Below, one piece after another: positions 7,698 to 28,899 of a DNA stretch of 32,000 nucleotides (the first letter of the stretch is position 1; the number at the start of each line of letters is the position of its first letter). The position numbers and the translations under genes are program-made. The DNA comes from Candidatus Saccharimonadota bacterium (GTDB taxonomy: Archaea; Micrarchaeota; Micrarchaeia; Micrarchaeales; Micrarchaeaceae). The notes under the pieces were generated by a model. It was not told where the DNA came from, did not search any database, and saw only the letters and a list, made by a program, of their open reading frames with translations. The stretch is taken from the NCBI GenBank assembly GCA_963698035.1, contig OY969114.1:600001-632000 (forward strand), given 5' to 3'.

Positions 7698-7705
7698 CTG
7701 ATGGA

Positions 7706-8950
7706 ATGAAATTGCTGATAGTAGATACCAGCCCTGGACTAAGAGGGGTCGGAGGTGCTTCCAGGGTTGCGAGTAGCCTCTTCTACGATCTTAGGAAGAA
7801 GGGGATATCGACATACTATCTGGGGCAGAAAAGCGATTACATAAGCAAGGGCAAAAATACATTCTTTTTGGGAGGCGGAGGCTGGACGCAGAGGCAAGCC
7901 AAGCAGTACATAAATAGCGGCCTGCGCTCCTTGGCAGAGAGCTGGCCTGCGAGGGCCGCCTACTATTCTGTCTATTCGATGACAAAGCACAGCAACGAGG
8001 AGATGGAGAGGTGGGTCTCAAGGGCAAAGCCCGACATAGTTATAGCGAGCTCGGTGCAGGACTACCTGCTCCTCAAGTCGCTCGCCAAGCAGCTCGGAAG
8101 CGCGAAACTGATATACATAGACCACGCAAACCTGTCTGGCAGCTACGGCAGCTCCCTCGAATACAACAAGCTAGGCTTCACCCTGGGCACCGGGCCGTAT
8201 GCGGGGCTCGAAGGCGCGAAGAAGCGCTTCTTCTCCCTTTTCGACGGCGTGGTCGCGCTAAACAAAGAGCAGTTCAGGGCGATAAAGAGGTTCAACAGGA
8301 ACGTGACGATAATACACAGCAGCATGCTAATCCGCAGCACAAAGGTGGGCACGCCGAAGATGCAGGCGCTGAGAAGGTCGCTGCGCATAAAAAAGGGCGA
8401 CAAGGTCGTACTCTACCTGGGCAGGCTATCCGAGCAGCAGAAAAATATAGGGACATTGATAAAGGCGTTCAGGTCGATAGAGAACCCCAAGATCAGGCTG
8501 CTAATAGTGGGGGATGGCAAATCGAAGGAGCTTTACGAGCGCATGTCGCAGGGAGACGGCAGAATCTCCGTGGTCGGAAGGGTTGACGACCGCATGCTTG
8601 CCTACTACTACTCGCTGGCAGGTCTCTATGTGCTACCGTCCATATGGGAGGCGTTCAATGCGACAATGATAGAGGCTGCGCACTTCGGCGCATCGCTGCT
8701 GCTATCTACATCAAGCATAAACGAGGACATAGCTGAGAGGTTCGGGGAGGAGCTCTACACCTTCGACCCATACAAGAGAGAGGAGCTTAGGTGGAAGATA
8801 GAGAAGTACTTCAACGACCCCGAGCTGCAAAAAAGGCTGCACACCCTATCGAAAGAGATAGACGCAGAGTACAGCAAGAAGAAGCAGATCGACAGCTATG
8901 CAGTCACGCTAAAGTATTTCTACAAGAAAGGGAAGTTTCCGGAGAGCTAG
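7706..8950 (+). CDS. Glycosyltransferase, GT4 (GT-B fold, Glycos_transf_1-type C-terminal domain)
   Basis: C-terminal domain pattern VLYLGRLSEQQKNIGTLIKAF...LLIVGDG...LYVLPSIWEAFNATMIEAAHFGASLL (the E-x7-E region). It starts 8 nt after the upstream gene. Confidence 0.85.
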   Translation: MKLLIVDTSPGLRGVGGASRVASSLFYDLRKKGISTYYLGQKSDYISKGKNTFFLGGGGWTQRQAKQYINSGLRSLAESWPARAAYYSVYSMTKHSNEEMERWVSRAKPDIVIASSVQDYLLLKSLAKQLGSAKLIYIDHANLSGSYGSSLEYNKLGFTLGTGPYAGLEGAKKRFFSLFDGVVALNKEQFRAIKRFNRNVTIIHSSMLIRSTKVGTPKMQALRRSLRIKKGDKVVLYLGRLSEQQKNIGTLIKAFRSIENPKIRLLIVGDGKSKELYERMSQGDGRISVVGRVDDRMLAYYYSLAGLYVLPSIWEAFNATMIEAAHFGASLLLSTSSINEDIAERFGEELYTFDPYKREELRWKIEKYFNDPELQKRLHTLSKEIDAEYSKKKQIDSYAVTLKYFYKKGKFPES

Positions 8951-10629: not shown

Positions 10630-12117
10630 TTATGGGACCTGCATCGCGTTCCCCGGCGTCACGGCCGGGAGGACCCCACCCGGTGGATAACCCCTAACTC
10701 TTACGTAGTAAATCGGCCCGATGCTCAATCCGGAATTGAGCTCATCTATAAAGGCTATCGACTGTGGCAGTGTCGGCAGGTCGTTAACAATTCCGATTGT
10801 TATGGAGTTCCCATAGTTGGCTAATGCCGATACAGAGCTTGGCGAGGCACTCGGCAGCATGACCGAGTAGACAGTATTGGAGCCCAAGCTGAGCCCCGCC
10901 ACCCTTACGGTGTTTGACCGGTTATTCGAGGTCTGCAGGCCGTAGGAGCTGCCATATACGTAGACCATCGCCGTGCTGTAGTTGATGTTTTGGGAGTTCG
11001 CAAGCCCTATGCCTGCAAGGCAGTAAGTACCGCAGCCTGTGCTTGAGGGTACCACGCCGTAAAAGTCGACTACGCCGGCACCGAAAGAGCTTTCCGAGTT
11101 TAAGTTTGTAATGAAAGGGCCGCCCGCGGGCGGCGTGACCGTAACCCCGTTGCTTACTTTGCAGAATGATGACGAGCAGCTGCTCCAACTTGTCGAATTG
11201 AGGGTGCTGCCCGCGAAGTTGCTGTAGAAGTTGAATACGTTTTGGCCATTGTCATACTGCGCATACGTGTTGCTCTGCAGCGGCGACTCGCCGGCATAGA
11301 GGCTATCGTACCCTATGCTATTTGGCAGGAAGTACATCGACAGGCTTGCAGATCCGCTTGGGGCTATGCTGCGGTCCATCACCACCCAGAAGATTACATT
11401 GCTAGTGGAGCTTGATGCGCAGTTTGTTTCACACCAGCTGTATAGCTCCTTTGCGCTGTCATAGAAGCGTATATTGCCCAAGTTCGGACTTTCGTATGAG
11501 GAGAATGTGTTTGGCTTGAACGTGACCATTATCTGGAGACCACCTTGTGTAGCATTTGTGGTGTTAATGTTATTAACCGAGAATGGAACGTAATAGTAAG
11601 GTCCCCCGGACAGCTTCTGCACCTCCGCTTGAAGCTGCAGAGTTCCTGTATAGATGTAGTTGCCGTTTGCCGGGCAGCTGTAGCTGTATAGCGATAAGCT
11701 CGAACCTGCGCAGTAGTTTGCCGATATTGCGAAGGAGCCGGTATACGTATTGCCTATCCTTGGAGCGAAGTTGAGCTTCGCCGTGCAGTAGACGGTCTCA
11801 CCCTCAGAAACTATGTTAGGCGTGCAGATTCCGTTGATGCTCATAGTCGAGCTTATAATCACGTTAAAGCTGCTCACGTTAACCTCTCCGGGCTGCGTGA
11901 AGGTCGCTATCAGAAAGAGCTGCGAGCCTATCCCATTCCAGGTCGCGTATACCACGTCCGAGCAGGAGAAGCCTCCAAAGAAGCTGCACTCCTGAGGCAG
12001 TATCGATGTCGATGAGGATGAGAGTATAAGCACAAGTACGACTGCGATTGTCATGATTATTATGGCGAAAGAGTAGACCGAAAGGAATTCGACAGCACTC
12101 TGGCCCTTCTGCTCCAT
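10630..12117 (-). CDS. Type IV pilin-like protein (class III signal peptide) with large DUF2341-like / ConA-like lectin C-terminal region
   Basis: The N-terminus MEQKG|QSAVEFLSVYSFAIIIMTIAVVLVLIL has a short basic leader, Gly at -1, Gln at +1, Glu at +5 and a hydrophobic helix. This is the archaeal EppA-type/DUF361-like prepilin signature. The middle segment LQIMVTFKPNTFSSYESPNLGNIRFYDSAKELYSWCE...NVIFWVVMDRSIAPSGSASLSMYF resembles DUF2341. The remainder is Ser/Asn/Gly/Tyr-rich with many N-x-S/T sequons. Confidence 0.8.
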   Translation of the reverse strand: MEQKGQSAVEFLSVYSFAIIIMTIAVVLVLILSSSSTSILPQECSFFGGFSCSDVVYATWNGIGSQLFLIATFTQPGEVNVSSFNVIISSTMSINGICTPNIVSEGETVYCTAKLNFAPRIGNTYTGSFAISANYCAGSSLSLYSYSCPANGNYIYTGTLQLQAEVQKLSGGPYYYVPFSVNNINTTNATQGGLQIMVTFKPNTFSSYESPNLGNIRFYDSAKELYSWCETNCASSSTSNVIFWVVMDRSIAPSGSASLSMYFLPNSIGYDSLYAGESPLQSNTYAQYDNGQNVFNFYSNFAGSTLNSTSWSSCSSSFCKVSNGVTVTPPAGGPFITNLNSESSFGAGVVDFYGVVPSSTGCGTYCLAGIGLANSQNINYSTAMVYVYGSSYGLQTSNNRSNTVRVAGLSLGSNTVYSVMLPSASPSSVSALANYGNSITIGIVNDLPTLPQSIAFIDELNSGLSIGPIYYVRVRGYPPGGVLPAVTPGNAMQVP

Positions 12118-13697: not shown

Positions 13698-13709
13698 GAT
13701 ATAAATTTT
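13698..13709. promoter_or_regulatory. TATA-like box (GATATAAATTTT) between divergent MBL and giant-protein genes
   Basis: The core ATATAAAT is centred at 13702.5, which is 25.5 nt from 13677 (minus-strand start) and 26.5 nt from ATG 13729 (plus). A second TTATAAAA at 13722-13729 would instead serve ATG 13750. Confidence 0.45.
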
Positions 13710-13728
13710 GGGGTAGTTATCTTATAAA

Positions 13729-16700
13729 ATGCAATTGCTGGGCGTGCCAATGGGAACTGGGTGGGGTCGTTACACAGCACATATGCTTACTGCACTATTT
13801 GGACTGCTTTTCTTCTTCTCATTGGTTCTGAGTTCCCATGCAGCCATCCCAAAAACAACTACCTACACCACCATCTACCAGTCCACCACCCTCCGCTCCA
13901 CCTCCATCTCCTCCACCACTTCCACCACTACTATCGCCCTACCTACATGCACTTGCAACGAGCAGTCTGAGAGCTGCGGCGTGACGCAATGCACCTGTCC
14001 AGTATCGTGCCCCCAGGAGATTGTCCAGCCACCCTGCAGCGAAGGCAAACAAAACGCCTATTGTTATGCACACATCTCCACCACCCTCTCCACCTCCATC
14101 TCCACCTCCATCTCTTCCACTTCAATCTCCTCCACCTCCGTCTCCTCCACAACCTCCACCATAAGCACCCTCTCCACCACCACCATAGTGCCGCAGCCTG
14201 ACATAATAACAATATGCACAAACATACAAACAAGCACCCCCTTCAAGAAATATGGGGGAAGTGGGGGCTTCTTGCAACAGATAAATACGACCCAGACTAT
14301 GCCCGTGACTACTAACGTAATTTCATATGACAGCCAGAACGCACAGTGGCTAATAACCTGCCCCAAAGCCCCAAATCCTACAGATACTCTTGAGTATCTG
14401 AACTCACCCAACACGCAGTTTATCGCAGGGGACGAGTGCCTCACCAATTCAACCCCGCTAAGCTCCAAGGTATGCCTCAATGTCATAGTGAACTGGAGCG
14501 ACACCATACTCGCGAACGTCATCCTAAACGTCAGCGGCACTAATCTGGCGAACCTTTCGGTGAGTAATCTTGCATACTCGGGAGAGAGCTACAACTATAC
14601 CGGCCCCCGCACCTCTACCACCACCTCAGTCCCCACCGTCTCCACCGTAACTACCTTCTTCTCCACTACGATACCTGCATGTACTTGCGGCGAGGAAGAC
14701 ATCGACTGTGACGTAGCGCAATGCCACCCCTGCCCCGGCTCATGCCCATCCACGGAGACGGCAAAGTGTGGCTCAAATGCTTATACTTTTCATTGCGAGG
14801 CATCCACCACTACCGACCCCCCCAGCGACTCCGCCCCTCTAGCTTCCTCCACCACTACCTTTATTACCACCACCGTCTCCGCCACTCTCCACCTTCCCCG
14901 CGCGGTCATCCCAAAAACAACCACCTACACCACCGTCTACCAATCCACCACCCTTAAATCCACCTCCATCTCCACCACCCTCTACTCCACAACCACCACC
15001 ATCAAGCTAGCTACATGCGCTGCCTGCGGCGACCAGTCTGAGAGCTGCGGCGTGGCGCAATGCATCTGCCCCGCATCGTGCCCCCAGGAGGTTGTCCAGC
15101 CACCCTGCAGCGAAGGCAAACAAAACGCCTATTGTATACCGGTCTACTCCACCACACTCTACTCCACAACCACAACCACTACCTCCTCCACCACAACTAC
15201 CATCTCCCTACCGCAGGCGTATATATCAAGCGGCTACGACTCAGCGTCGAACATCTTCCAGGGCGTGCCTTCATCAAAGCAGAGCGGGGTATGGAGCTGG
15301 CACGCCAAGGTAGCGAACCTCTCTCTGGCAAATACCAGCCAGCTATCCCAATCCGATTGGATAAACTTAATCTATAACACAAAAGACTCAAGCGGAGATG
15401 CGTGTCAGTACGACTATAACCTCTCGGTGCAGGCATCGATTAGCTCCCTGCAGAATGGGGAGGCGCCTGTACCTGTGGCACCATCCACCTCCGGCGGAGA
15501 CTACCTATCGTTCAACAATGTAACATACACTGGATTTACAACAGGGCAGCAGTACGGGGCGAACGCAATTGCGATGAACTCCTGTTACCTCCCCAATTTC
15601 TGGACCCAATGGCATCTAGTAAGCACCAGCGGCGCAATGAACTATCAGGGCAGCACGCAGAGCCCTGTCTGCGTCTACCAGTACGGCAACGTGCCAGAAT
15701 ACTGGAGTGCGAACGTTATCGGGGGTACCCTAACAACAGGATACGTAATGGCCAACACCCTCTCATTCGGCGACAGCTCTGTGCTGCCCTACCTCCTGTA
15801 CAACATCTCGCTCCCCACCATTGTGCAGACGCTGGGATCGACCGAAAGCTTCCTCAACTCTTCCTATGACCTCTACTCGGCGCACAATCTACAGTCGCCA
15901 GGCAACTTCCTAGACCCATTCCTGATAGGCGGGACCTCAGACGGATCATCAATATTTATGAACGTAAATGGGGTACTCGCGCAGCTCTCGGCACCAACCT
16001 TCTTTGGAAATCCCGCGGCATCACCCACATCGCCGATCTACAACGGGCTGCAGATACAGGCTACCTCATTTGTGGTGCAGCAGAACGCAACAATAGCAAG
16101 TACCTACGGACTTAGCAACGCGCAGGCGATAGGGCCATCATATTCCATAGCCAGCATAACAAATGCTATACTCTTCGCTGAGGCGTCGAACAACAACTTC
16201 TTTGTGCTGAGCAACATCAGCATCTGTTCTAGTTCTAACCCTGCTAACGAAAATTGTTTTATTAACAATGCGTATTACATATACAGGCTGCAGTACTTCC
16301 CTGCAGGCTACTTCAGCACACCCGATAGGACTCCTTCCCAGGCTGCTCCCACGAATGCGCCCTCTGCCACTGCCTACAGCGCCAATGTGGAATCCTACCT
16401 CAGCAATGTATCCTCACTGCAGCAGGGAGGCTACTACATTACCAGCATGTACAATGTGACTAAGCTGTGGTATCCTGCATATTATACGTACCCCAAGCCA
16501 ATAGCAATGGCATCAGATGCAGGTGGAGACCTCTTTGTGTTGGCGGCAAACGTTATGGGAACCTGTTATGGTTCAGGAAATGGGTGCAGCGCTTACGGCT
16601 TCGACCTTTTCTACATATCCAGCTCTGGGCAAGTACTCTTCGACAATGTGACCTCCAGTCCGGAATATAACACGTGGCTTGGTTCTATAATATTTGGTTC

Positions 16701-19700
16701 CTCTCCCCAAAACACTTCATTTACAGTTTCGCCCACCGGGCAGTACCTCTACGTGAGCACGAAGAGCATACCCTACGTCTTCATATATACTGCAAAGGTC
16801 GTCAACGGGCTGAATTCCACCTATCTAACGGCCATAAACCTATCGTATTCCACACCCGCATATAACCTAAGCATAACCAAGTACCTTGGAGGCGGTGGCC
16901 CATACAACTCAAGCGCGTTGAAGAGTCTGTACGCACCCGGCTCTCCAAACTTGAAAAACTTGAATGATACGCCAACTGCGCCAAGCGGTTATTCATCGCA
17001 CTGGCCTATAGGCCTCGCTGAATCGCAGGGCATCCTCTACGTTCTTGATGATTGGTTCATCGGCGAGCCCCCGCTTGATGCGGGAGGTAATCCCGCAGCC
17101 GAAAGCATCCTAATGCTTCGGGCGTTCACTTACAATGGCACCGAAATACCTATCGATGCAGCTACCTACGACGATGTCATACCAAAGAGCTACCTCAACC
17201 TGGGTACTGGATACGTAGCGGGACAGCTCTATCCTCCGTACGGGCTGCCGATATCTGCAAACTTCTCCGTGCCGAAATCTTTAGGCAGTAACCACTACTC
17301 ATACCTAAGTTACTGTGCCTATGGATGCACATACAGCCCATTGTCAAGCTGGTCTCAGCCCGCATACAACGCGCTGCTTCCAGACTACTCATGGATTACA
17401 AATAGCTCGCCCCCGGTAGGGCCGTTTTTGGGTGCGGAGTCGCCTCCCACCCCCGGAAAGGTTGTCGCATGGACAAATCCTCTAGTGATACCCTTCGCAT
17501 CCTTCACTGCGGATTTAAACAACACCCTCTATCTCAATGCCTGGGCGTATGCATATCCTACCTCCTTTTGTACTCTCGAGACTCCAGTAACAGCCCCCCC
17601 AATATCTTCATCATGCAGCCAGTTCTACGCAGAGCTGGCAGGCATCCACTTCAACCCGCAGAATTACACTAGGATCGCGGCCAACCCGCAGATCTCATAT
17701 GCGTGCTATCTTGGCATTAATACAAGCCCCACCAACATCTTCAAACCTTCCTCCCCTTCCGGCACCACCTGCACAACCGTTGCAAACCTCAGCAGGCAGA
17801 AGCCCCCGGCCCTTGGCATCCCCGATCCGTTCTCTTATGCGGAAAGCCTTGGAAGCCCGAGCGCGTACCTATCCGGGCCGCTATCGCTAACTACACTGTA
17901 CCCAAGCTTGTATGGTGGCGCCGATCCTCCATCACAACCAACTCTGGCCATCTCCCCCACCACAATCTCCACTGGCACAAGCGTTACAATAAGTGCAACC
18001 TGCCAACCAAGCACAGATAACTGCGCAATAGACTACCCGAACTTAGGAACGCAGATAGCCATAGGCACAGGCTCCGCTACCGATACATTCACACCAGGTA
18101 CAGCAGGCTCATTCTGCTACTATTATGCCAATGATATAACTACCGGCCTAAACTCTGCAGGGCAATGCCTTGCAGTCACTTCCTCCTCAGGGCTCAGCAA
18201 TTCTTCAAACATTGTGATAGGGAACAGCATATCAATAAGTATTCCTTCGATACCAGCCGGGCTTGCTGCATCCAAACTGAAGAGCGACATATCCGGATAC
18301 ATCCTCGTCCCAATTAACTATACATATTCGCTGACCCGATCTTACTCACCAAGTCCGGATTTGCCAGCGTTCGGTGACCCTTCTTCCTGCGGCTCCATAT
18401 CGCTTCCTGCCCAATCCACCCAGAGCTTCCAGGTCCATACGGATGTACTTCAGTCCGCTTCAGAGAGCCAGCTCAACGAGAGCCTGGCGAGCGGCTTTGT
18501 GATAGGGCAGTATCAGAACAACAATAAGTACTATGAAGCGAACCTGTCTGATGCCGGTCTGATACTACCCCCGCAGATCTTCCTCAACATATTCTCGAAC
18601 AGGATATTCGGTGAAATGTACATAAACCAGAGTATGAACCCGCGCGGCCCGTCACTCGGAGGGAATGGGCCTTCATCCTTTACAGGCAGCTCGTACGGAA
18701 GCATCCTCATAGCTGCAGACCCTGTAATCCAGGGCTACCCAGACCAGATAACGCTCTACGCCGGTAGTGAAACAGCCGGGGACGCCCTATGGTTTTATGT
18801 CCTCAACATCAATGGCAACCAGGTGGCTGCCAGCCCAACCTCCAGCAGCGGCTCTGTAGCGCTGACTATCTGCGCCTCTTCTAACTCCTGCCTGCCGCCA
18901 GGATATTATAGTATAGAGGCGTACGCCATGAACCCCATCCAAACCCTCATCCCGATATTCCCGCAGCTAATCGTCCGATCGAGCGCAAGCCTTGGGGACG
19001 TTGTGATAAATGCGACCCATACATTCAACTACTCGCAGATTAACTTCGAACAGATGTATGGCGGCGGCATCGTGGCTCCTGGGTTCTCTGAAGAGGCTGC
19101 GCTGCAGCTCAACCCCCAGGCAATCGGCGCAGTATGCAGCTTCTGCACGCTCCCCTACTACTACAATCCTGCGAACCTATTTGTCGGCAACAACAGCCTC
19201 TCGCACAGCGGCCCGCTCCAGACGAATCTGGTAGCGCTCTTCAGCCAGTTCAAGGTGATGACCCATCTTGACGTCCTGGACCTAAGCATGCTGTACAACG
19301 CCAAAGTGCTCGGCTACAACCGGCTTAATTACAGCTATACAGACCAGTTCAACAACACGATAAACATGCCCATGGATGTTGATTTGGCGAACATAACTCT
19401 GATAACCTTGAACGTGTCTAGCGTGATAAATTCTAGCAATCCCAACTCCACATTCGTGAAGGTGAAGGGCATAGCCGGGTACTACCCCAGCTTCTTCAGC
19501 GTCACTCCGTCGCCCATCCCGGAGGGCAGCCCGATATACCTGTACTATGACACAAACATAAACTTCTACAACCAGAGCCTCAACCCGTCGTCGAATCCTG
19601 ACGCGTACTATACATACGCGCTGCAGTGCGCATTCGGCAGCGTGAGCGGCCCATGCGCCTTTGCCGACCCCTCCCTCATGACACTGCCACCACTCGGCCA

Positions 19701-20301
19701 GGGTCCGGTAGGTCTCCAGCAGGCGCAGACGATAAACTTCCACTCGCAGTTCAACACCACGGGGCAGTGCTCGCCAGAGCCAAACAGCCTGCTCATCGCG
19801 CCCAATACAACAGAGTGCAACATATACCCAGGAAACCAATGGGGGCTTCCCACCAGCGGCACTTCGGCGCAGGGAGTCCGCGAGTACTGCATACCGGATT
19901 ATACAAATGGCACGGGAGTGCTGACTACGCAGCTCGGGCTGATGGACATCGCAACTGCTGGCATCAACGGCAACTTCAGCTACAACTTTACAGTATGCGG
20001 TACCGGCACAGCAAGGCTGCAGGCGAGCTACTACGGCTACCCTGTCAACCAACCACAGCTCTTCTTCCAGACGCCGCTGCAGACCAGGCCATCGCTAAGT
20101 TCTGCTGGCGGGACATCGGTACCGCTTGTAGGCAGCCCGGAGTTCAACTACTCCATAGCGCCGAACACCACTGTCAAGTCTATCCAGATAGGTAGCTATT
20201 ACCTCTCACTGGGCGAAATAGCCTCGATACTCGGCATATCGATAGTCGCGGGGATCTTCTGCTACCTGCTGCTCAGGGACCGCTTTAGCTCAAAAGACTA
20301 G
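13729..20301 (+). CDS. Giant (2190 aa) secreted, C-terminally membrane-anchored surface protein with Ser/Thr-rich mucin-like tracts and Cys-rich modules (putative adhesin or S-layer-type glycoprotein)
   Basis: A single uninterrupted 6.57-kb ORF. It has a Sec-type signal (MLTALFGLLFFFSLVLSSHA|AIPK) with alternative starts at ATG 13750 and 13783. There are three 8-Cys modules separated by poly-Ser/Thr tracts in the first ~480 aa, and dozens of N-x-S/T sequons throughout. A C-terminal hydrophobic helix IASILGISIVAGIFCYLLL is followed by a basic tail RDRFSSKD. Confidence 0.9.
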   Translation: MQLLGVPMGTGWGRYTAHMLTALFGLLFFFSLVLSSHAAIPKTTTYTTIYQSTTLRSTSISSTTSTTTIALPTCTCNEQSESCGVTQCTCPVSCPQEIVQPPCSEGKQNAYCYAHISTTLSTSISTSISSTSISSTSVSSTTSTISTLSTTTIVPQPDIITICTNIQTSTPFKKYGGSGGFLQQINTTQTMPVTTNVISYDSQNAQWLITCPKAPNPTDTLEYLNSPNTQFIAGDECLTNSTPLSSKVCLNVIVNWSDTILANVILNVSGTNLANLSVSNLAYSGESYNYTGPRTSTTTSVPTVSTVTTFFSTTIPACTCGEEDIDCDVAQCHPCPGSCPSTETAKCGSNAYTFHCEASTTTDPPSDSAPLASSTTTFITTTVSATLHLPRAVIPKTTTYTTVYQSTTLKSTSISTTLYSTTTTIKLATCAACGDQSESCGVAQCICPASCPQEVVQPPCSEGKQNAYCIPVYSTTLYSTTTTTTSSTTTTISLPQAYISSGYDSASNIFQGVPSSKQSGVWSWHAKVANLSLANTSQLSQSDWINLIYNTKDSSGDACQYDYNLSVQASISSLQNGEAPVPVAPSTSGGDYLSFNNVTYTGFTTGQQYGANAIAMNSCYLPNFWTQWHLVSTSGAMNYQGSTQSPVCVYQYGNVPEYWSANVIGGTLTTGYVMANTLSFGDSSVLPYLLYNISLPTIVQTLGSTESFLNSSYDLYSAHNLQSPGNFLDPFLIGGTSDGSSIFMNVNGVLAQLSAPTFFGNPAASPTSPIYNGLQIQATSFVVQQNATIASTYGLSNAQAIGPSYSIASITNAILFAEASNNNFFVLSNISICSSSNPANENCFINNAYYIYRLQYFPAGYFSTPDRTPSQAAPTNAPSATAYSANVESYLSNVSSLQQGGYYITSMYNVTKLWYPAYYTYPKPIAMASDAGGDLFVLAANVMGTCYGSGNGCSAYGFDLFYISSSGQVLFDNVTSSPEYNTWLGSIIFGSSPQNTSFTVSPTGQYLYVSTKSIPYVFIYTAKVVNGLNSTYLTAINLSYSTPAYNLSITKYLGGGGPYNSSALKSLYAPGSPNLKNLNDTPTAPSGYSSHWPIGLAESQGILYVLDDWFIGEPPLDAGGNPAAESILMLRAFTYNGTEIPIDAATYDDVIPKSYLNLGTGYVAGQLYPPYGLPISANFSVPKSLGSNHYSYLSYCAYGCTYSPLSSWSQPAYNALLPDYSWITNSSPPVGPFLGAESPPTPGKVVAWTNPLVIPFASFTADLNNTLYLNAWAYAYPTSFCTLETPVTAPPISSSCSQFYAELAGIHFNPQNYTRIAANPQISYACYLGINTSPTNIFKPSSPSGTTCTTVANLSRQKPPALGIPDPFSYAESLGSPSAYLSGPLSLTTLYPSLYGGADPPSQPTLAISPTTISTGTSVTISATCQPSTDNCAIDYPNLGTQIAIGTGSATDTFTPGTAGSFCYYYANDITTGLNSAGQCLAVTSSSGLSNSSNIVIGNSISISIPSIPAGLAASKLKSDISGYILVPINYTYSLTRSYSPSPDLPAFGDPSSCGSISLPAQSTQSFQVHTDVLQSASESQLNESLASGFVIGQYQNNNKYYEANLSDAGLILPPQIFLNIFSNRIFGEMYINQSMNPRGPSLGGNGPSSFTGSSYGSILIAADPVIQGYPDQITLYAGSETAGDALWFYVLNINGNQVAASPTSSSGSVALTICASSNSCLPPGYYSIEAYAMNPIQTLIPIFPQLIVRSSASLGDVVINATHTFNYSQINFEQMYGGGIVAPGFSEEAALQLNPQAIGAVCSFCTLPYYYNPANLFVGNNSLSHSGPLQTNLVALFSQFKVMTHLDVLDLSMLYNAKVLGYNRLNYSYTDQFNNTINMPMDVDLANITLITLNVSSVINSSNPNSTFVKVKGIAGYYPSFFSVTPSPIPEGSPIYLYYDTNINFYNQSLNPSSNPDAYYTYALQCAFGSVSGPCAFADPSLMTLPPLGQGPVGLQQAQTINFHSQFNTTGQCSPEPNSLLIAPNTTECNIYPGNQWGLPTSGTSAQGVREYCIPDYTNGTGVLTTQLGLMDIATAGINGNFSYNFTVCGTGTARLQASYYGYPVNQPQLFFQTPLQTRPSLSSAGGTSVPLVGSPEFNYSIAPNTTVKSIQIGSYYLSLGEIASILGISIVAGIFCYLLLRDRFSSKD
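13840..14064 (+). repeat. Copy 1 of an internal ~230-bp duplication (Thr-rich linker plus 8-Cys module)
   Basis: It encodes AAIPKTTTYTTIYQSTTLRSTSIS...CTCNEQSESCGVTQCTCPVSCPQEIVQPPCSEGKQNAYC. Its last 44 nt (ttgtccagcc...gcctattgt) are identical to copy 2. Confidence 0.9.
14902..15135 (+). repeat. Copy 2 of the internal ~230-bp duplication
   Basis: It encodes AVIPKTTTYTTVYQSTTLKSTSIS...CAACGDQSESCGVAQCICPASCPQEVVQPPCSEGKQNAYC and is collinear with copy 1 at the DNA level with scattered substitutions. A diverged third Cys module lies at 14674-14796. Confidence 0.9.
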
Positions 20302-20341: not shown

Positions 20342-21310
20342 ATGCTGCAGTTGTTTGTGCTGAGCATAGGGGCGATATACGCGCTGATACCACTTGTAAT
20401 CATAATAATACTGATAGCCGCGGCAGTGGGTCTGACCAGGGGATCAACCATCTTCGAGCTATTCGGGATAGAGGCCCTGGTGGGGATGGCAAGCGCAAAG
20501 AACATAGGAGCAGGCAAGGCTGGAACAGGCATCGGCGGGACGACTATGACGAAAATGCAAGCAAGACAGAAGTTGGCGGGGTTTGGAGCAACATCCGCTG
20601 GAAAAACGCAGAAAGTAACGGGGACTCTCGCAGCAAGTGCGGCACAGAAAGCCTCTACGAATGCAGAAGCAGCAGCCATGATAAACAAGTTAGCCAAACA
20701 GGGTAACCCAGAGGCCGTGGCAGCTGTGGCTGCGGGCGCAGCAGCTTTCGCAACTGCCTCTCAATCCCGCAAGGGTAAGGGTATAGTAAACCTCGCCGTA
20801 TCCTCTCCACCACCACCTCCTCCATTCCCCGGAGCAAAACCTCCCTCCAGATGGAACAGATCAACTAATGTATTCACCACGCGAACGCAAAGAGGGGGAA
20901 ACCCTCTTCTGACTATGCAGGTGCCCGCCCCCCTCTCTATTATGACATGGAGAACGAGGGCAGGGAGCTGGCGCACCACAAGGGCGGAAAGTCGTAGTGC
21001 TGCAGCAGCATCATGGGTCGCTAGTCAGCAACACGCTGCAACCATCGCGGCATACAGGCAGCATGCAGGTCCTGTGGCGCACCAAATGATAATGCAGGCG
21101 GCAAAGTATAAAACCAATCCTTCCCGAGTGCCTAAGCCCCTGCGCCGCTCTGCCTATCTCCCGCTGAGTAAGCCCGCTTCTAAAATGAGCTGGATATACG
21201 GTCACAGGGCGAGTGCACCAATTCCCCAGACGAGAAGGCAAATGATATGGTCATTCTATAAGGGCACAGGCGGCGCGCTGAAGCGAAAATTGAGAGAGGA
21301 AAAGGACTAG
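20342..21310 (+). CDS. Hypothetical N-terminally membrane-anchored, low-complexity basic protein
   Basis: An SD-like GGTGA lies 4 nt upstream of the ATG, 40 nt after the giant gene. It has an N-terminal TM helix (LFVLSIGAIYALIPLVIIIILIAAAVGL), then an Ala/Gly/Lys-rich segment, a PPPPPPFP tract and an Arg/Trp-rich C-terminal half. No family was recognised, and the low complexity lowers confidence. Confidence 0.5.
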   Translation: MLQLFVLSIGAIYALIPLVIIIILIAAAVGLTRGSTIFELFGIEALVGMASAKNIGAGKAGTGIGGTTMTKMQARQKLAGFGATSAGKTQKVTGTLAASAAQKASTNAEAAAMINKLAKQGNPEAVAAVAAGAAAFATASQSRKGKGIVNLAVSSPPPPPPFPGAKPPSRWNRSTNVFTTRTQRGGNPLLTMQVPAPLSIMTWRTRAGSWRTTRAESRSAAAASWVASQQHAATIAAYRQHAGPVAHQMIMQAAKYKTNPSRVPKPLRRSAYLPLSKPASKMSWIYGHRASAPIPQTRRQMIWSFYKGTGGALKRKLREEKD

Positions 21311-21318
21311 AGAGATAA

Positions 21319-22041
21319 TCAAGCAACTCTCTTCAGTATCTCCTCGCCGAGCCTTGCCCCAGCCGTTATTTCGGGCAGCACTATGCTCGAGGCCCCAGCC
21401 TTCGCGAGCTTCTGCATGTTCTCCTCCTCTATGACCCTGGATATCACGTCTATATTTGGATTTATGTCCTTAGCTGTTATCGCAATCAGGGCATTCTTCA
21501 CGTCCTCGTCATCGCACGCGATGATGCACGACGCCTTCTCGGTTCCAGCGGTCTTGAACGCCTCCTCGCTCTTCAGCTCCCCGACAACTGCGAGCATTCC
21601 CTGCCTGTAGAGCCGCGCAGCCTGCATATTATCCTGCACGATCGCCACGAACTTCATCTTCTCCTTTGCCAGTTCTTCAACAAGCACCTTCGAGAAGTTG
21701 TTGTACGGGGCGACTATTATGTGTTTATTCAGCCTCTTCACCTTTGCAAGTACGAAGTACTCAGTTATATTTATGCTGCGTATCAGCCTGATGAACCAGG
21801 TAGCAAGGAAGACCGCGAAGAGTGCGAAGACAAAAGCATCGAGAAGGCTCGAGGTCAATACAAGGGGACTGTCCACGAGCGCCGCCGGTATCAGCGCGTA
21901 GTAGACGTATAGGGATGCAAGCAGGTTCCATATGAGGGAGATGCCGAGCCCCACGCCCGCGATCGCCGTAAGCGCTACCGCGATGGCGAAGAGCACAAGC
22001 GCTATTAGAAGCACCAGGTAGTTCATGTTCTTTCTCTTCAT
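21319..22041 (-). CDS. Membrane protein with C-terminal RCK/TrkA-N domain (degenerate dinucleotide motif, no K+ filter)
   Basis: It has about 3 N-terminal hydrophobic helices followed by a TrkA-N-like domain (HIIVAPYNNFSKVLVEEL...FVAIVQDN...IIACDDEDVKNALIAITAKDINPNIDVISRV). Its ATG overlaps the upstream gene's stop (ATGA). Confidence 0.75.
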   Translation of the reverse strand: MKRKNMNYLVLLIALVLFAIAVALTAIAGVGLGISLIWNLLASLYVYYALIPAALVDSPLVLTSSLLDAFVFALFAVFLATWFIRLIRSINITEYFVLAKVKRLNKHIIVAPYNNFSKVLVEELAKEKMKFVAIVQDNMQAARLYRQGMLAVVGELKSEEAFKTAGTEKASCIIACDDEDVKNALIAITAKDINPNIDVISRVIEEENMQKLAKAGASSIVLPEITAGARLGEEILKRVA

Positions 22042-22820
22042 CTCCTCACCTTCTCCAGCAGCGCGCTGCCTATCTCAACGCCTGCGAGTATCTCCGGCAC
22101 TATGCACATCTCCGCGCCGGCGCGCTGCATCTTCGTTATGCCTGTGTCCTCATCAGCGGCCCTTGATATTATCTTCACCTTAGGGTTAAGGTGCTTTGCC
22201 GTCACTATGCCCATCAGGTTGGCCAGGTCGTCTTTCGTTGCGAAGACTATCGCCCTCGCCTTCACTATGTCCGCCTCCTTCAATATCTCCTCACTGGCGA
22301 AGTCGCCGCCTATTACCGTGTAGTTGCGGTCCCTTAGCATCTCTATTGTCACAGGGTCCCTATCTATCACTAGGAATTTCATCTTCTCCTCAGAGAGATC
22401 GTTGCAGAGCCGCTCCGCGGTCCTCGAATAGCCGCAGATTATTATGTGGTTATTCATCCTGCTCGCAGAGAGTATGCTCACCTTGGAGAGCAGCTCCGTG
22501 CCCGTTAGTATCTCTATTATTGCGGCAAGCGCGAGGCCAACCGCAACTATCTTGGCGACTCCGTCTATAACCGAAATTATTATGAGCTGGTAGAAGGCGG
22601 CGCCGAATGGCGGCGCGTTTGCCTGCAGCACAGATGCGACGCTTATCCCTACCGCATCAAAGAGCGAGCCAATTGTGTAGTATGCAGAGACATAGAGGTT
22701 GTGCGATATGTTGTAGACTATGTAGAGCGTGGCCAGGGCGAGTATCACTGCCGCTATCGCAAGATAGATGAGCGTCTTTCCCGCGATGCTCCTCCTCTCA
22801 AGCTCCGGCACATTCACCAA
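22038..22820 (-). CDS. MthK-like 2-TM channel-RCK fusion protein with non-canonical pore signature
   Basis: The architecture is TM - pore-helix-like segment - TM - RCK (HIIICGYSRTAERL...FLVIDRD...). The position aligned to the K+ filter T-V-G-Y-G reads A-V-G-I-S (22641-22655). TTG start at 22820, preceded by AGGTG. Confidence 0.75.
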   Translation of the reverse strand: MVNVPELERRSIAGKTLIYLAIAAVILALATLYIVYNISHNLYVSAYYTIGSLFDAVGISVASVLQANAPPFGAAFYQLIIISVIDGVAKIVAVGLALAAIIEILTGTELLSKVSILSASRMNNHIIICGYSRTAERLCNDLSEEKMKFLVIDRDPVTIEMLRDRNYTVIGGDFASEEILKEADIVKARAIVFATKDDLANLMGIVTAKHLNPKVKIISRAADEDTGITKMQRAGAEMCIVPEILAGVEIGSALLEKVRR

Positions 22821-22828
22821 GCGCCCAC

Positions 22829-23254
22829 CTACTTCATAAGCTCCTTGACAATCTCCCTGCTCGCGGTCTTCTGCGGCATCACTATGTAGTCGGCGCCTGC
22901 ATCCACCAGCTTCTCCCTTACGAAGTCGTCGTTGGACCTTGTCGCTATGAATATGCTTTTGTTGAGGTCCCTGGCGGTTAGCACAGCGAACAGGTTTTTC
23001 GCGTCGTTGTCCATGACTATTGCTATAGCCTTAGCGTTAGCGATGCCAGCAGATTTGAGGACCCTCGACGATGTGGCATCGGCATTTATGGTCTTGTAGC
23101 CGAGTTCCTCGCATCTCTTCGCTATGTCGGTGTTGGCCTCTATTATCACGAAGTCTACGTTGTGCTCGATGAGCATGTCCGTAATCTTCCTGCCCACGAC
23201 CCCATAGCCGCAGACTATCACATGATTCTTCGCCTCAATCCTTCTCTCAGCCAT
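22829..23254 (-). CDS. Soluble RCK/TrkA-N domain protein
   Basis: Intact Rossmann motif VIVCGYGVVGRKI, plus FVIIEAN, GDA-like INADATSSRVLKSAGIANA and IIATR-like FIATRSND. At 141 aa it has no TM segment. Confidence 0.85.
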   Translation of the reverse strand: MAERRIEAKNHVIVCGYGVVGRKITDMLIEHNVDFVIIEANTDIAKRCEELGYKTINADATSSRVLKSAGIANAKAIAIVMDNDAKNLFAVLTARDLNKSIFIATRSNDDFVREKLVDAGADYIVMPQKTASREIVKELMK

Positions 23255-24239: not shown

Positions 24240-25538
24240 ATGGTATTAATGGCGGACGCGATGGCCCCCGAGACTAGGACCACTATAGATGCAATGATAG
24301 AGCTCCTGAAGAGCAGAGGCAAGACGGATATCGCCCAAATATCAATGGCTCTGGACACAGATCAGGGCATAATAGAGAACTGGGCAAAGGTTCTCGAGAA
24401 GGGCAATCTTGTCAAGATAAGCTACGAAGTGGGCAAGATGTTCGTAACTCCCTACAATCTTACACCGGAGCAGGAGACCGCTGTGAAGGCCGAGATGCAA
24501 ACAAAGGCATTTTCGATAGAATCTACCGTATCATCAGAGCTGCTCTCACTTGACAATCTTTCAGAGACGCTCAAGGGCATAAAGACCTCCATATTAGCAG
24601 CCGAGAAGCTGGAATCCGATCAGATGCCGCAGATGCGCAAGGCGCTCTCGCAGATAAACTCCATATCCGAAGCTGTAGACCAGAAGCTCAGGTCAGTCGG
24701 CCAGACGGAGAAGAGGGCGAACGAGTTCTATGATGCGATAAACAAGCGCGCTGCAGAGCTCGCCATGAGGGTCTCTCAGATCGAGTCGACCGTAAACAGC
24801 AAGAGCATCGAAGATGCAAGGCACAACATTGCTCAGATCATGGGCGAAGCGGCTGATGCAGACAAACAGATTGCGCTGATGAGCAAGAACACCAGCGATT
24901 CAATAAACCAGCTCAGGACGAGTATGGAGGAGCAGATGAAACAGCTGCACCAACAGATGGATTCAAACGGGAGGGACCTCGAGGCGAAGACGAAAGAGTA
25001 TTCAAGGCTGCTTTCCGAAAGCGAGCGCGAGTTAAGGGACAGGGCGAGAGCAGCCACCTCTGTAGTCCAGGAGTCGAAGGAATTCGAGCAAGAGAAGGAG
25101 AAAACAAAAAGTAGGATTAACGAGGTAAGGGCGGAATTTAACGACGCATATGCGAAGACCAGGGAGGAGATAAGCAAGAGCAAGAGCGAACTCGATGCAA
25201 GTTCAAAGGCGCTTCTCGACCAGGTAGACTCCATAAAGAAGGGATTCGGCGAGGCGGCGATGATGGATGATGCGATAACGCGGGTAAAGGGCGAGCTTGC
25301 ATCGATAGAATCGGATATCGCCGCGCAAAGGCGGGAGATAGAGGAATTACTCACGCAGATACACAAGATCCAATCTACGGAAGTGCAGCCTGACAAGAAG
25401 AGTGCCACCATCAATAGCATCAAAGACATGGTGGACAAGGCTGCATCAAACGTCAGCGATATAAGGAACAAGGTCAAGAATGTATCGGAGGGGGCAAAGG
25501 AGATAGGCAAGAAGGAAGAGGGGCAGCAAGAGGGATGA
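24240..25538 (+). CDS. Winged-helix-like N-terminal domain plus ~350-aa coiled-coil protein (function unknown)
   Basis: The first ~70 aa (IDAMIELLKSRGKTDIAQISMALDTDQGIIENWAKVLEKGNLVKISYEVGKMFVTP) look like a wHTH. The remainder is E/K/Q/S-rich heptad-like sequence. Its stop overlaps the ATPase start (ATGA at 25535-25538). Confidence 0.7.
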   Translation: MVLMADAMAPETRTTIDAMIELLKSRGKTDIAQISMALDTDQGIIENWAKVLEKGNLVKISYEVGKMFVTPYNLTPEQETAVKAEMQTKAFSIESTVSSELLSLDNLSETLKGIKTSILAAEKLESDQMPQMRKALSQINSISEAVDQKLRSVGQTEKRANEFYDAINKRAAELAMRVSQIESTVNSKSIEDARHNIAQIMGEAADADKQIALMSKNTSDSINQLRTSMEEQMKQLHQQMDSNGRDLEAKTKEYSRLLSESERELRDRARAATSVVQESKEFEQEKEKTKSRINEVRAEFNDAYAKTREEISKSKSELDASSKALLDQVDSIKKGFGEAAMMDDAITRVKGELASIESDIAAQRREIEELLTQIHKIQSTEVQPDKKSATINSIKDMVDKAASNVSDIRNKVKNVSEGAKEIGKKEEGQQEG

Positions 25539-27049
25539 TTCTGATGGAGCAGTCAAATAGCGAAGCGGGGCACGTAATGGCAAGCTACAGCTTGAACGCC
25601 AATGGGATGCCGGTCAACATAGAGATCTTGCAGGGTATAGATTACACCCCCACCTACAGAGTGACGATACCGGGGATGGCGGCTGCCACTAAGCTGTTGC
25701 TCATGTCGCTCAGGAGCGAGCTCATTCCCATGGTCTCTGTCGACACAACCAGAATACAGGACAAGCAATACCTTGATGAGGTAAACAAAAAGTACATAAA
25801 TGCGAGCAGCCTACTCATCGATAGGTATCTTCCAGGAACGCCGCAGAGCACGAAGTCATTGCTTATTGCGTATGTGATAAACATGATGTTGGGACTCGGC
25901 GACCTAGAGGGTCCGCTCGCCGACGAAAATCTTGAGGAGATTGCGGTAAACGGCGCAGGGCACCGCATCTGGGTCTTCCACAAGGATTTTGGCTGGTGCA
26001 AGACCGACATAACGCCGCAGACCGAGGAGCAGATATACGACTATGCGGAGCAGATAGGCAGAAGAGTGGGGAGGGAGATAAACAACCTGTCACCCCTGAT
26101 GGACGCTGTCCTGCCCGATGGCTCGAGGGTCAACGCGACGCTATACCCGATATCGGAGGTAGGCGACACAATAACGATAAGGAAGTTCGCAAAGAACCCG
26201 TGGACCATGCCCGCGATGATAAAGAACCACACCCTTGACCCGTCGCTCGCAGCGCTCGTCTGGCTCTGCATACAGAACGAGATCAGCTTGCTAATATCGG
26301 GGGGCACGGCAAGCGGAAAGACTAGCATGCTCAACGCGGCCAGCATATTCTTCCCGCCGAACAGAAGGATAATATCTGTAGAGGAGACGAGGGAGCTGAC
26401 GCTGCCCGATTTCCTCCAATGGATACCCATGGTGACAAGGCAGCCTAACCCGGAGGGCAAGGGAGAGGTGACGCTATACGACCTCACGATCAATTCGCTG
26501 AGGCAGAGGCCAGACATAGTGGTGGTCGGCGAGGTAAGGGTGCAGAAGGATGCGGAGACGCTCTTCGAGTCTATACACACCGGCCACGCGGTCTACGGGA
26601 CGCTCCACGCAGACAACGCGCAGGACACCATCATAAGGCTGACAAACCCCCCGATAGCGATATCAAAGGTGATGGTCAATGCGCTAGGCGGCATTCTCGT
26701 CGCGTTCAGACACAGGATGAGAGGAATAAGGAGGATACTGGAATATGGAGAGGTGCTGAGGAGCGGGGACGTCAACGTTCTCTACAAGTGGAACATGCGT
26801 GATGACACCTTCACCCAGATAAGCGAGATGACGAGGCTGGCAGATACGCTGATCCTCTATTCCGGTTATACACTCCAGGAGATAAACGATGACATAGCCG
26901 AGAAGATTGAGGTATTGAACTGGATGGTGAAGAACGACGTGATGTCTGTCAATGATGCTGGTCTTGTAGTTGCCAACTACTACAGAAGGAAGGACAAAGT
27001 GCTCGACATAGTCAGGAACGGCGTCAAGTTCGCAAGGGATATATTTTAA
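25535..27049 (+). CDS. Type II/IV secretion-family ATPase (FlaI/ArlI / PilB / TadA / EpdL-like)
   Basis: Walker A ISGGTASGKTS, Asp box ISVEETRELTLP, Walker B RPDIVVVGEVR and His box TGHAVYGTLHA, all in the canonical order. Confidence 0.9.
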   Translation: MILMEQSNSEAGHVMASYSLNANGMPVNIEILQGIDYTPTYRVTIPGMAAATKLLLMSLRSELIPMVSVDTTRIQDKQYLDEVNKKYINASSLLIDRYLPGTPQSTKSLLIAYVINMMLGLGDLEGPLADENLEEIAVNGAGHRIWVFHKDFGWCKTDITPQTEEQIYDYAEQIGRRVGREINNLSPLMDAVLPDGSRVNATLYPISEVGDTITIRKFAKNPWTMPAMIKNHTLDPSLAALVWLCIQNEISLLISGGTASGKTSMLNAASIFFPPNRRIISVEETRELTLPDFLQWIPMVTRQPNPEGKGEVTLYDLTINSLRQRPDIVVVGEVRVQKDAETLFESIHTGHAVYGTLHADNAQDTIIRLTNPPIAISKVMVNALGGILVAFRHRMRGIRRILEYGEVLRSGDVNVLYKWNMRDDTFTQISEMTRLADTLILYSGYTLQEINDDIAEKIEVLNWMVKNDVMSVNDAGLVVANYYRRKDKVLDIVRNGVKFARDIF

Positions 27050-27070
27050 TGACTTCCCTTCGTTATAAGG

Positions 27071-27790
27071 TTGGTACGAATGGCAGACCAAGAGAAGGCG
27101 ACCCTATATTCACAGCTTGTAAAACAGATTGTGGAGATTGAGGGCAGTTCTGAGAAGCCAGAATCCGGCAGCGTTAACATATCGGAGAGTTTTTCCGGGA
27201 GCACGCAGAGGGGCAACGTAGATTATTCCAACCTCATAAACCTGATAAGCGAGGTAGAGAGAAAGGAAAGCATCTTCCAAAGACCACAGAAGTTGCAGCC
27301 ACAGATTGTCGAGCAGGTAGCGCAGCCATCAGCAGAGGAGCAGCCACAGATTGTCGAGCAGGTAGCGCAGCCATCAGCAGAGGAGCAGGTTATTGTATCT
27401 GCAGAGGCTCTCGCAATCGCAAGCGCGAAGAAGCAGGTGAAGAAGGAGCTTGCCGAGCTGACAAAGGCATTGCCGATCAAGATGCCGATGTTCGAGGAGC
27501 AGAAAATAAAGAAGGTAAATTCTGACCTTGTGCTGCCAAACCTGTCCCTGTTGGACCAGGTTTCCGAGCTGGAGAGGATAATAGAAGGATTGAGGGCTAA
27601 CATTTTCATGGGGGATGAGAGGGAGATCGTGGAGGAGGAGCTCTACGGTCTTGCCGAGCAGGTCAAAAAGGAGAAGTCTGAGCTTAAGAAGAGGAAGACG
27701 CTCCAGCAGGATGCTGCGCAGCTCTGGAGCCTGAGAGACCAGAGGCTGACGGTTGCGATAGTGTTGCTGCAGCAGAGGAGGAACGGGTGA
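27071..27790 (+). CDS. Acidic hypothetical protein with a duplicated 15-aa unit and C-terminal coiled coil
   Basis: Track start is TTG 27071, with an in-frame ATG at 27080. It contains PQIVEQVAQPSAEEQ twice in tandem and is E/Q/K-rich. It sits between the ATPase and platform genes. No family was recognised. Confidence 0.6.
   Translation: MVRMADQEKATLYSQLVKQIVEIEGSSEKPESGSVNISESFSGSTQRGNVDYSNLINLISEVERKESIFQRPQKLQPQIVEQVAQPSAEEQPQIVEQVAQPSAEEQVIVSAEALAIASAKKQVKKELAELTKALPIKMPMFEEQKIKKVNSDLVLPNLSLLDQVSELERIIEGLRANIFMGDEREIVEEELYGLAEQVKKEKSELKKRKTLQQDAAQLWSLRDQRLTVAIVLLQQRRNG
27296..27385 (+). repeat. Perfect 45-bp tandem duplication (2 copies), in frame
   Basis: The unit cagccacagattgtcgagcaggtagcgcagccatcagcagaggag occurs at 27296-27340 and again at 27341-27385 with no mismatch. 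Confidence 0.95.
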
Positions 27791-27794
27791 GCCA

Positions 27795-28895: not shown

Positions 28896-28899
28896 TGCT

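Follow-up and report, generated by a model that had tools for sequence, protein, structure and literature searches.

In a window of 32,000 nucleotides from a Micrarchaeaceae genome (contig OY969114.1, positions 600,001 to 632,000 of the forward strand; assembly GCA_963698035.1) we analysed a gene encoding a giant protein of 2190 amino acids (aa) in one uninterrupted open reading frame (ORF; 13729..20301, +). Homology searches place this giant in a phylum-restricted, previously undescribed and unannotated family of giant surface proteins with a C-terminal anchor, built from conserved blocks in a fixed order between which differing modules are inserted. Its sequence predicts that the giant is a glycoprotein of type I (N-out) topology, anchored in the membrane at the surface of a Micrarchaeota (DPANN) cell. 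While its architecture, family membership and topology could be established in this way, we infer an adhesive function in host contact. The interpretation we favour, with slightly less than even confidence, is that the giant is a conserved surface scaffold presenting swappable binding modules for contact with a host or a matrix.

The family was delimited by an exhaustive HMMER search with a profile of the most conserved, membrane-proximal block (block D) against 1.84 billion representative proteins (clusters at 50 % identity). This identified 207 representative proteins at E ≤ 1e-3, 192 of which reached E ≤ 1e-30, and since there is almost no twilight zone among the matches the family has a sharp boundary, beyond which no relatives could be detected. 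When species-representative genomes were scanned with the C-terminal block, 72 loci were located, nearly all labelled Candidatus Micrarchaeota or Micrarchaeaceae, whose ORFs are intact and 1500-3800 aa in length; a member is present in Ca. Micrarchaeum sp. ARMAN-1 (OJI07497.1) and one metagenome-assembled genome (MAG) carries three paralogues. The source of the window is accordingly a DPANN archaeon of the ARMAN type, which has a small genome and depends on a host. An initial homology search had returned 14 relatives, all of them unannotated giants, and word-indexed searches with alignments A1 and A5 yielded three short fragments each. Certain members (clusters P0003, P0005 and P0022 and loci L052 and L066) come from MAGs labelled 'Candidatus Marsarchaeota'. 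All of their close relatives carry the label Micrarchaeota, and the likely reason is mislabelling of these bins, with no second phylum carrying the family. A Marsarchaeota origin of the window, to which the names of protein matches had first pointed, was discarded, since nearly all 72 genome records and ARMAN-1 are labelled Micrarchaeota. The whole protein and nine sub-segments gave nothing above threshold against Pfam and NCBIfam, and a sequence search of the PDB with the whole protein and with profiles built from 63 sequences of block B3 and 72 of block D returned no significant match. The original prediction, an earlier reading of this DNA from its letters, had recognised no family, and these searches bear it out; they equally failed to reveal the homology to a characterised S-layer (surface layer) family that it had considered.

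Pairwise and iterative searches resolved five conserved blocks in the fixed order A-B1-B3-C-D, followed by the transmembrane helix and basic tail, and the window protein contains all five in order. Their prevalence was measured by jackhmmer among the 72 locus proteins. Block A (aa ~155-295; 14194..14613, +; motif ..NAQWLITCP..) is present in 49 of the 72, was aligned by BLASTP in 11 of 13 homologues and has no Pfam match. It corresponds to an unrelated domain of about 170 aa in the original prediction, which was right as to its presence, although the block measures ~140 aa and is conserved across the family. Block B1 (aa 497-760; 15217..16008, +; motif ISxGYDSxSxIFxxVPSSxQxGxWxW) was found in 57 of the locus proteins. 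The variable region B2 that follows (aa 761-999; 16009..16725, +), for which jackhmmer gave no relatives, is all-β in the AlphaFold2 model with predicted local distance difference test (pLDDT) values of 60-80. Block B3 (aa 1000-1400; 16726..17928, +), present in 66, contains the blade-like motifs SPTGQYLYVS and GILYVLDDW, a sequon at N1312 (NYT) and invariant His, Asp, Trp and Cys residues, among them H92, D108 and W110 of alignment A4. Block C (aa 1516-1640; 18274..18648, +; motifs YYxxNLSDxGL and FTNRLFGxxYxNQT) was recovered in 67, and block D (aa 1758-2163; 19000..20217, +) in all 72. Block D is the most conserved, with 30-57 % identity and six invariant Cys in alignments A1 and A5, the motifs LGYNRLxYTxxDRFNNTI and IYLYYDTNINYY and a sequon at N1906; it probably contains β-sandwich units. 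The window protein carries the invariant Cys and sequons of both B3 and D, as well as the LGYNR and IYLYYDTNIN motifs. Two inserts separate the C-terminal blocks. Insert 1 (aa 1401-1515; 17929..18273, +), possibly Ig-like with paired Cys (ATCxxxxxxC), is confined to close homologues, with repeats of similar modules in relative P0002; the lineage-specific insert 2 (aa 1641-1757; 18649..18999, +) could not be aligned to relatives and has no Pfam match.

The N-terminal part of the giant is elaborated with Ser/Thr-rich tracts and Cys-rich modules. One unit, comprising Ser/Thr tract 1 (aa 39-73; 13843..13947, +) and 8-Cys module 1 (aa 74-112; 13948..14064, +; CTCNEQSESCGVTQCTCPVSCPQEIVQPPCSEGKQNAYC), is inserted ahead of block A and is followed by tract 2 (aa 113-155; 14065..14193, +). 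A further ~200 aa separate A from B1 and consist of tract 3 (aa 296-317; 14614..14679, +), the diverged 8-Cys module 2 (aa 318-356; 14680..14796, +), a Ser/Thr-rich linker (aa 357-429; 14797..15015, +), 8-Cys module 3 (aa 430-469; 15016..15135, +) and tract 5 (aa 470-496; 15136..15216, +). Module 3 duplicates module 1, the two being 92 % identical at the DNA level (15025-15135 versus 13954-14064), and the second half of the linker copies tract 1 with 80 % identity (14897-15000 versus 13835-13938). Such identities in both the modules and the tracts preceding them indicate a recent internal duplication. The five tracts (≥ 70 % Ser/Thr) sum to 136 aa, the highest value among 217 family giants.

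A threefold repeat of Ser/Thr tract and 8-Cys module had been anticipated and could be located at modules 1 to 3. The predicted spacing of the Cys was slightly off at two positions, where x(6,7) and x5 are in fact x6 and x4, giving the pattern C-x(1,2)-C-x6-C-x4-C-x(1,2)-C-x3-C-x(7,8)-C-x8-C. A metagenome scan for 8-Cys spacing, as the original prediction had proposed, gave at least 120 matches, and those listed were all simple repeats of the (TG)n/(TGC)n type, none resembling the module. The three modules have no Pfam match at E ≤ 10 (including laminin-type EGF, knottins, granulin and similar families), and no 8-Cys module was found in any of the 216 other family giants examined. As block B1 follows immediately on block A in most relatives and the Cys module recurs in none of the other giants examined, the tracts and modules are best regarded as lineage-specific decorations. 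Judged from these alignments it is the conserved scaffold that defines the protein, and not the tracts and Cys modules to which the original prediction had drawn attention. The same prediction had called mucin-like linkers and a Cys module unusual for an archaeal envelope protein. No family was recognised for the module. Ser/Thr linkers are not uncommon in this family, at least one being present in 61 of the 217 members. Ser/Thr linkers also occur in the haloarchaeal S-layer glycoprotein and in Sulfolobus SlaB and binding proteins. The tract region is made up of degenerate CCA/CCT/TCC repeat DNA (repeat families D1 and D2), in which slippage and errors of assembly can easily arise, and over this region the window shows a GC skew of -0.43 (14001-15000) arising from TCC/ACC-rich codon runs.

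The reading frame, which is open for 6.5 kb, is preceded by two TATA-like boxes recognised by reading of the sequence. The first (ATATAAAT; 13699..13706, +) lies ~27 nt 5′ of the ATG at 13729 and the second (TTATAAAA; 13722-13729, +) ~25 nt 5′ of an in-frame ATG at 13750, both positions fitting a leaderless archaeal mRNA. The protein begins with the hydrophobic signal-like segment LTALFGLLFFFSLVLSSHA. The signal-peptide-like region (aa 1-38; 13729..13842, +; h-region LTALFGLLFFFSLVLS) has a likely cleavage site after SHA, and its h-region is retained from either of the alternative in-frame starts M8 and M19. At the opposite end the C-terminal transmembrane helix (aa 2164-2182; 20218..20274, +; IASILGISIVAGIFCYLLL) is followed by the short basic tail RDRFSSKD, predicted to be cytoplasmic, and the stop codon (20275..20301, +). 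Both termini agree with the Sec signal, single C-terminal transmembrane segment and basic tail described in the original prediction, and both recur in the full-length relatives, 51 of 55 having a signal-like N-terminus and 50 of 55 a C-terminal hydrophobic helix, with basic tails throughout. No PGF motif precedes the helix, the C-terminus reading ...SLGEIASILGISIVAGIFCYLLLRDRFSSKD, and there is no NCBIfam match, placing the protein outside the PGF-CTERM/archaeosortase class. In more than 55 full-length relatives the ORF is intact and the termini are alike, with none of the frameshifts that the original prediction had envisaged as a sign of a protein that is not made, and for this reason the giant is very probably made.

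The public gene model of the giant, P0001, comprises 2000 aa and starts at M191, 190 aa further downstream, leaving out window positions 13729-14298 and with them the signal peptide, Ser/Thr tract 1, Cys module 1 and the start of block A. As the similarity to relatives starts at aa ~157-161 and module 1 is a near-copy of module 3, the long form of the ORF is the correct one, and the start codon of P0001 is likely to have been misannotated owing to the low-complexity N-terminus. The present analysis thus corrects a public model from which 190 residues, the signal peptide among them, are missing.

The giant is poor in charged residues, with 24 % Ser plus Thr, 2.5 % Lys plus Arg, 4.8 % Asp plus Glu and 57 Cys; the ectodomain has a calculated isoelectric point of 4.45 and, leaving glycans aside, a mass of 224 kDa. 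About fifty N-x-S/T sequons had been counted by eye, and our recount gave 52 in the whole protein versus 33.8 ± 4.9 in 5000 shuffles (p ≈ 4e-4), with 46 versus 25.6 ± 4.4 in the core (aa 497-2160). This enrichment is not family-wide, the median member having 32 sequons observed versus 33 expected. Two sequons, N1312 (NYT, block B3) and N1906 (NST, block D), are nevertheless 100 % conserved in the aligned relatives, and five further sequons are conserved in 68-82 % of them, which suggests that N-glycosylation is functional and that the protein lies outside the cell. The extracellular, glycosylated nature of the giant is thus suggested jointly by the enriched and conserved sequons, the invariant Cys of B3 and D and the acidic composition poor in Lys and Arg.

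Folds were predicted by AlphaFold2 for two 1200-residue halves, using alignments of 14 and 17 sequences. Both models are poor, with mean pLDDT values of 44.1 and 38.9, and fold assignments are therefore tentative. In the N-terminal half (aa 155-1354) values of 60-80 were confined to ~aa 594-1194. Foldseek matches to this model were almost all β-propellers at E ~1e-3 and template modelling (TM) scores ≤ 0.37, including seven-bladed lactonase-like structures (3hfq, 3fgb), paraoxonase (PON1), DFPase and the heads of sialidases or paramyxovirus G attachment proteins; matches to the C-terminal half were meaningless (E ≥ 0.05). The YVTN/NHL repeat profiles of Pfam matched neither the protein nor any of 63 aligned B3 segments. 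The propeller blades of the original prediction are thus echoed by weak structural matches and not by any repeat profile, and the models point weakly to a β-propeller in the central part of the giant, to whose propeller-like body region B2 would probably belong. β-Propellers are a common ligand-binding scaffold. The two Ig-like segments that had also been proposed fared unevenly: one, at aa 1400-1515, gave a sub-threshold match to Big_3_5 (E = 0.037, 15 bits against a cut-off of 35.5 bits), and the other gave none. Block D segments showed a weak Big_3_5 match in 7 of 72, and weak CarboxypepD_reg matches in members.

Different members of the family have acquired different modules. At its N-terminus P0002 shows homology (E = 1e-10) to a DUF2341/LamG-like protein encoded in our window (10630-12117, -), and a DUF2341-like module also lies inside the giant at locus L005. 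The protein at L063:4199-5485 has the glycosidase-like Spherulin4 (PF12138) at its N-terminus (E = 2.6e-36). A lysozyme-like stretch is present in P0007, P0009 and P0010, preceded in the latter two by a Ser/Thr-rich linker, and the lysozyme-like SLT_3 was matched by one aligned B3 segment (E = 0.0025). Other members have Gly-rich stretches and extra Ig-like repeats. The differing modules of relatives, the ~200-aa insert splitting A from B1, the recent duplication and the three paralogues in one MAG all argue that the giants are modular.

Taken together these features suggest how the giant might be built and used. Its hydrophobic N-terminus would direct Sec export and then be removed, many sequons, several of them strictly conserved, would be N-glycosylated and the Cys pairs oxidised, and the single C-terminal helix would tether the protein with its basic tail in the cytoplasm. 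Being adjacent to this tether, block D would lie beside the membrane, block C would make up the body together with the propeller-like B region, and block A with the N-terminal additions would form the far tip, these additions being distal because the anchor is C-terminal. Evolution would have inserted differing modules into this conserved scaffold, both at its tip and at the junctions of blocks: in relatives the lectin-like DUF2341/LamG, lysozyme-like SLT and glycosidase-like Spherulin4 modules, Ig-like repeats and Gly-rich stretches, and in the window giant Ser/Thr 'bottle-brush' spacers with three small, presumably disulfide-knotted 8-Cys modules, pushing block A ~200 residues off the body. 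A molecule of this kind would reach through or past a separate S-layer lattice, contacting the surface of a host cell or a biofilm matrix on behalf of this host-dependent episymbiont. Micrarchaeota attach to Thermoplasmatales hosts (PMC8975820), and near the giant lie a type IV pilus locus and a gene for a pilin-like protein with a lectin domain, both syntenic in relatives; we count this context in favour of a role in host contact, which we regard as plausible.

A number of points weigh against this interpretation, in addition to the poor quality of the models on which the propeller-like body depends. Profile searches recognised no lectin or enzyme module at the tip of this giant. The conserved core and conserved housekeeping neighbourhood would moreover fit a structural envelope protein equally as well as an adhesin.

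One such structural role is that of a pillar or anchor spanning the 20-25 nm pseudoperiplasm and holding an SLP_Mh-type lattice to the membrane, by analogy with SlaB under SlaA in Sulfolobales. SLP_Mh (Micr_00292; 978 aa, ~101 kDa, PF05123/TIGR01564) is the experimentally identified S-layer protein of Ca. Micrarchaeum harzensis, the most abundant protein of A_DKE in the proteome of that study and represented by homologues in virtually every Micrarchaeota genome (10.1101/2021.04.28.441871); it falls within the MSTP-like class with a β-sandwich fold (10.1101/2024.05.28.596244). Gfrerer et al. found no anchor in SLP_Mh and proposed a second, transmembrane-anchored stalk protein (10.1101/2021.04.28.441871), a vacancy that the giant could conceivably fill with its C-terminal anchor, its most conserved block next to the membrane and a gene that is vertically inherited with conserved synteny across many species. 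It is however four to five times the size of known anchor subunits, several paralogues are present in some genomes and there is no sequence similarity to solved S-layer or anchor proteins. A family length of 1500-4000 aa, with inserted modules differing between species, is hard to square with a fixed lattice spacing, and the AlphaFold2 secondary structure, at low confidence, contains no long coiled-coil stalk. We consider such an anchoring role rather unlikely. As for the lattice itself, SLP_Mh resembles the giant, itself predicted to be glycosylated, in being a glycosylated envelope protein of the same phylum, acidic and low in both charge and sulfur. It differs in having S_layer_N domains and an N-terminal hydrophobic segment with no C-terminal anchor, so that the giant is anchored in the opposite sense. 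No S_layer_N domain or S-layer β-sandwich was detected in the giant (Pfam E ≤ 1, NCBIfam E ≤ 0.01, PDB sequence search). As SLP_Mh belongs to a different family (PF05123) whose domains the giant lacks, a role as the S-layer protein suggested in the original prediction is unlikely.

The giant might alternatively act as a surface enzyme or in nutrient capture, its tethered β-propeller core processing or trapping host glycans or other substrates. The best Foldseek matches are indeed propellers of the lactonase, paraoxonase and sialidase types, B3 has its invariant His, Asp and Trp, and the glycan-active modules Spherulin4 and SLT_3 occur in some relatives. Yet these matches are weak and indicate a fold class only, profiles from Pfam, NCBIfam and the PDB show no catalytic family, and the enzyme-like modules are accessory inserts of few members, outside the core. 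An enzymatic or nutrient-capturing function is accordingly improbable in our estimation. It is hardly credible that the ORF of the giant is decaying or not expressed, or that low-complexity sequence gave rise to it as an artefact of assembly, the shorter public annotation being outweighed by a frame open over its full length, more than 55 intact orthologues, invariant motifs, Cys and sequons, TATA-like boxes at the right upstream distance and homology to relatives that extends upstream of the annotated start.

The genes surrounding the giant in the window are archaeal housekeeping genes, namely Trm1, a class I Trp/Tyr-tRNA synthetase, KsgA and a metallo-β-lactamase (MBL)-fold protein, and the gene order DUF2341 protein - KsgA - MBL - giant is kept in 13-17 loci. 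The DUF2341/LamG-like protein (10630-12117, -; 495 aa) combines a type IV pilin-like (class III) signal, MEQKGQSAVEFL..., with its DUF2341/LamG-like domain and lies two genes upstream of the giant, an arrangement that is syntenic in 13 loci. It may represent a pilus-borne lectin-like protein functionally linked to the giant scaffold. Downstream of the giant is a type IV pilus-like assembly locus (24240-29895, +), also conserved there at the most closely related loci (L001, L003, L004 and L008); it encodes a coiled-coil protein (432 aa), a T2SSE/PilB-type ATPase (504 aa), an ORF of 239 aa, an UpsF/TadC-like membrane protein (366 aa) and a second membrane protein (331 aa). Directly adjoining it is a gene whose 676-aa product contains two Laminin_G_3 (ConA-like lectin) domains (29896-31926, -), which matches the expansion of LamG linked to pili reported in Micrarchaeon Mia14 (PMC5498576).

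Other neighbours of the giant have less obvious connections to it. Three consecutive TrkA-N (NAD-binding) genes of 240, 260 and 141 aa (21319-23254, -), also found beside the giant in six related loci, have no channel or transporter partner recognised within the window. About 5 kb upstream of the giant a type I phosphodiesterase/alkaline phosphatase (AlkP)-superfamily protein (511 aa) is followed by a glycosyltransferase of family GT4 (414 aa; 6162-8950, +), a pair that may act in glycan or envelope biosynthesis. Directly 3′ of the giant is an ORF of 322 aa (20342-21310, +) encoding a very basic, low-complexity Ala/Pro/Arg-rich product with an N-terminal transmembrane segment. It has no family match and no counterpart at the 72 related loci, and is a spurious ORF or else a membrane protein specific to this lineage; a functional operon of the giant with this ORF was rejected as the ORF is conserved at no related locus.

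What had been an isolated 'hypothetical protein' becomes through this analysis one representative of a defined unannotated family, with 207 representatives sharing one scaffold and confined to Micrarchaeota. The family is set apart from the known S-layer lattice protein of the phylum, and its scaffold accepts swappable modules at the distal end. To our knowledge no attachment protein has been identified in Micrarchaeota. The giant offers a concrete target for study in co-cultures of Micrarchaeum with Thermoplasmatales, and also a marker for setting tip modules against host range. A more far-reaching and unlikely proposal is that the family constitutes a conserved host-docking organelle of Micrarchaeota, its membrane-anchored β-propeller scaffold setting host specificity through exchangeable tip modules of lectin-, lysozyme- or glycosidase-like kind or, in this giant, through mucin-like stalks bearing the undescribed 8-Cys module. 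Were this true, the family would provide a first molecular handle on how DPANN archaea of the ARMAN type recognise and hold their wall-less Thermoplasmatales hosts, and in the 8-Cys/Ser-Thr cassette one would see a new archaeal domain, extracellular and actively duplicating. Should the giant prove a plain structural envelope component, the result would be a useful annotation and no more.

Among known systems the nearest by description are the giants of Ca. Mancarchaeum acidiphilum Mia14 (MIA14_0152, _0331, _0793 and _0946), which occupy ~2.5 % of its 0.95 Mb genome, are secreted surface proteins described as containing PKD, YVTN/Kelch and CARDB modules and have been proposed to act in interaction with the Thermoplasmatales host (Golyshina et al. 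2017, PMC5498576). Compared by description only, they belong to the same phylum and size class as our giant. They differ in having been described as strain-specific and partly laterally acquired, whereas the present family is conserved and syntenic and has no Pfam match to YVTN, PKD or CARDB. A YVTN β-propeller combined with PKD is also found in a surface protein of Methanosarcina mazei (PDB 1L0Q), of which the blade-like SPxGxxxYVa of the giant is reminiscent, although the match is non-significant (E = 8.8 over 28 residues) and no Pfam match to YVTN or PKD was obtained.

SlaB of Sulfolobales and tetrabrachion of Staphylothermus share with the giant an N-terminal signal, a single C-terminal transmembrane anchor, Ser/Thr-rich regions and heavy glycosylation, the latter being predicted for the giant. 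Tetrabrachion is likewise very large, at ~1500 aa. Both form regular assemblies with long coiled-coil stalks, in contrast to the AlphaFold2 models of the giant, which at low confidence are nearly all β with short helices; there is no similarity to either in the PDB sequence search, and the relatives of the giant vary strongly in length and modules. Very large surface proteins proposed for host attachment are also known from other episymbionts, including the SPEARE proteins of Nanohaloarchaeota and giants of other DPANN and candidate phyla radiation (CPR) lineages. SPEARE proteins carry serine protease, adhesion and restriction endonuclease domains, whereas the giant has no homology to them and no Pfam domain was found in it; surface proteins of Nanoarchaeota provide a further comparison (PMC6142677). 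The giant thereby joins a known class, the giant surface proteins of host-dependent archaea, as a testable candidate for attachment of Micrarchaeota to their hosts.

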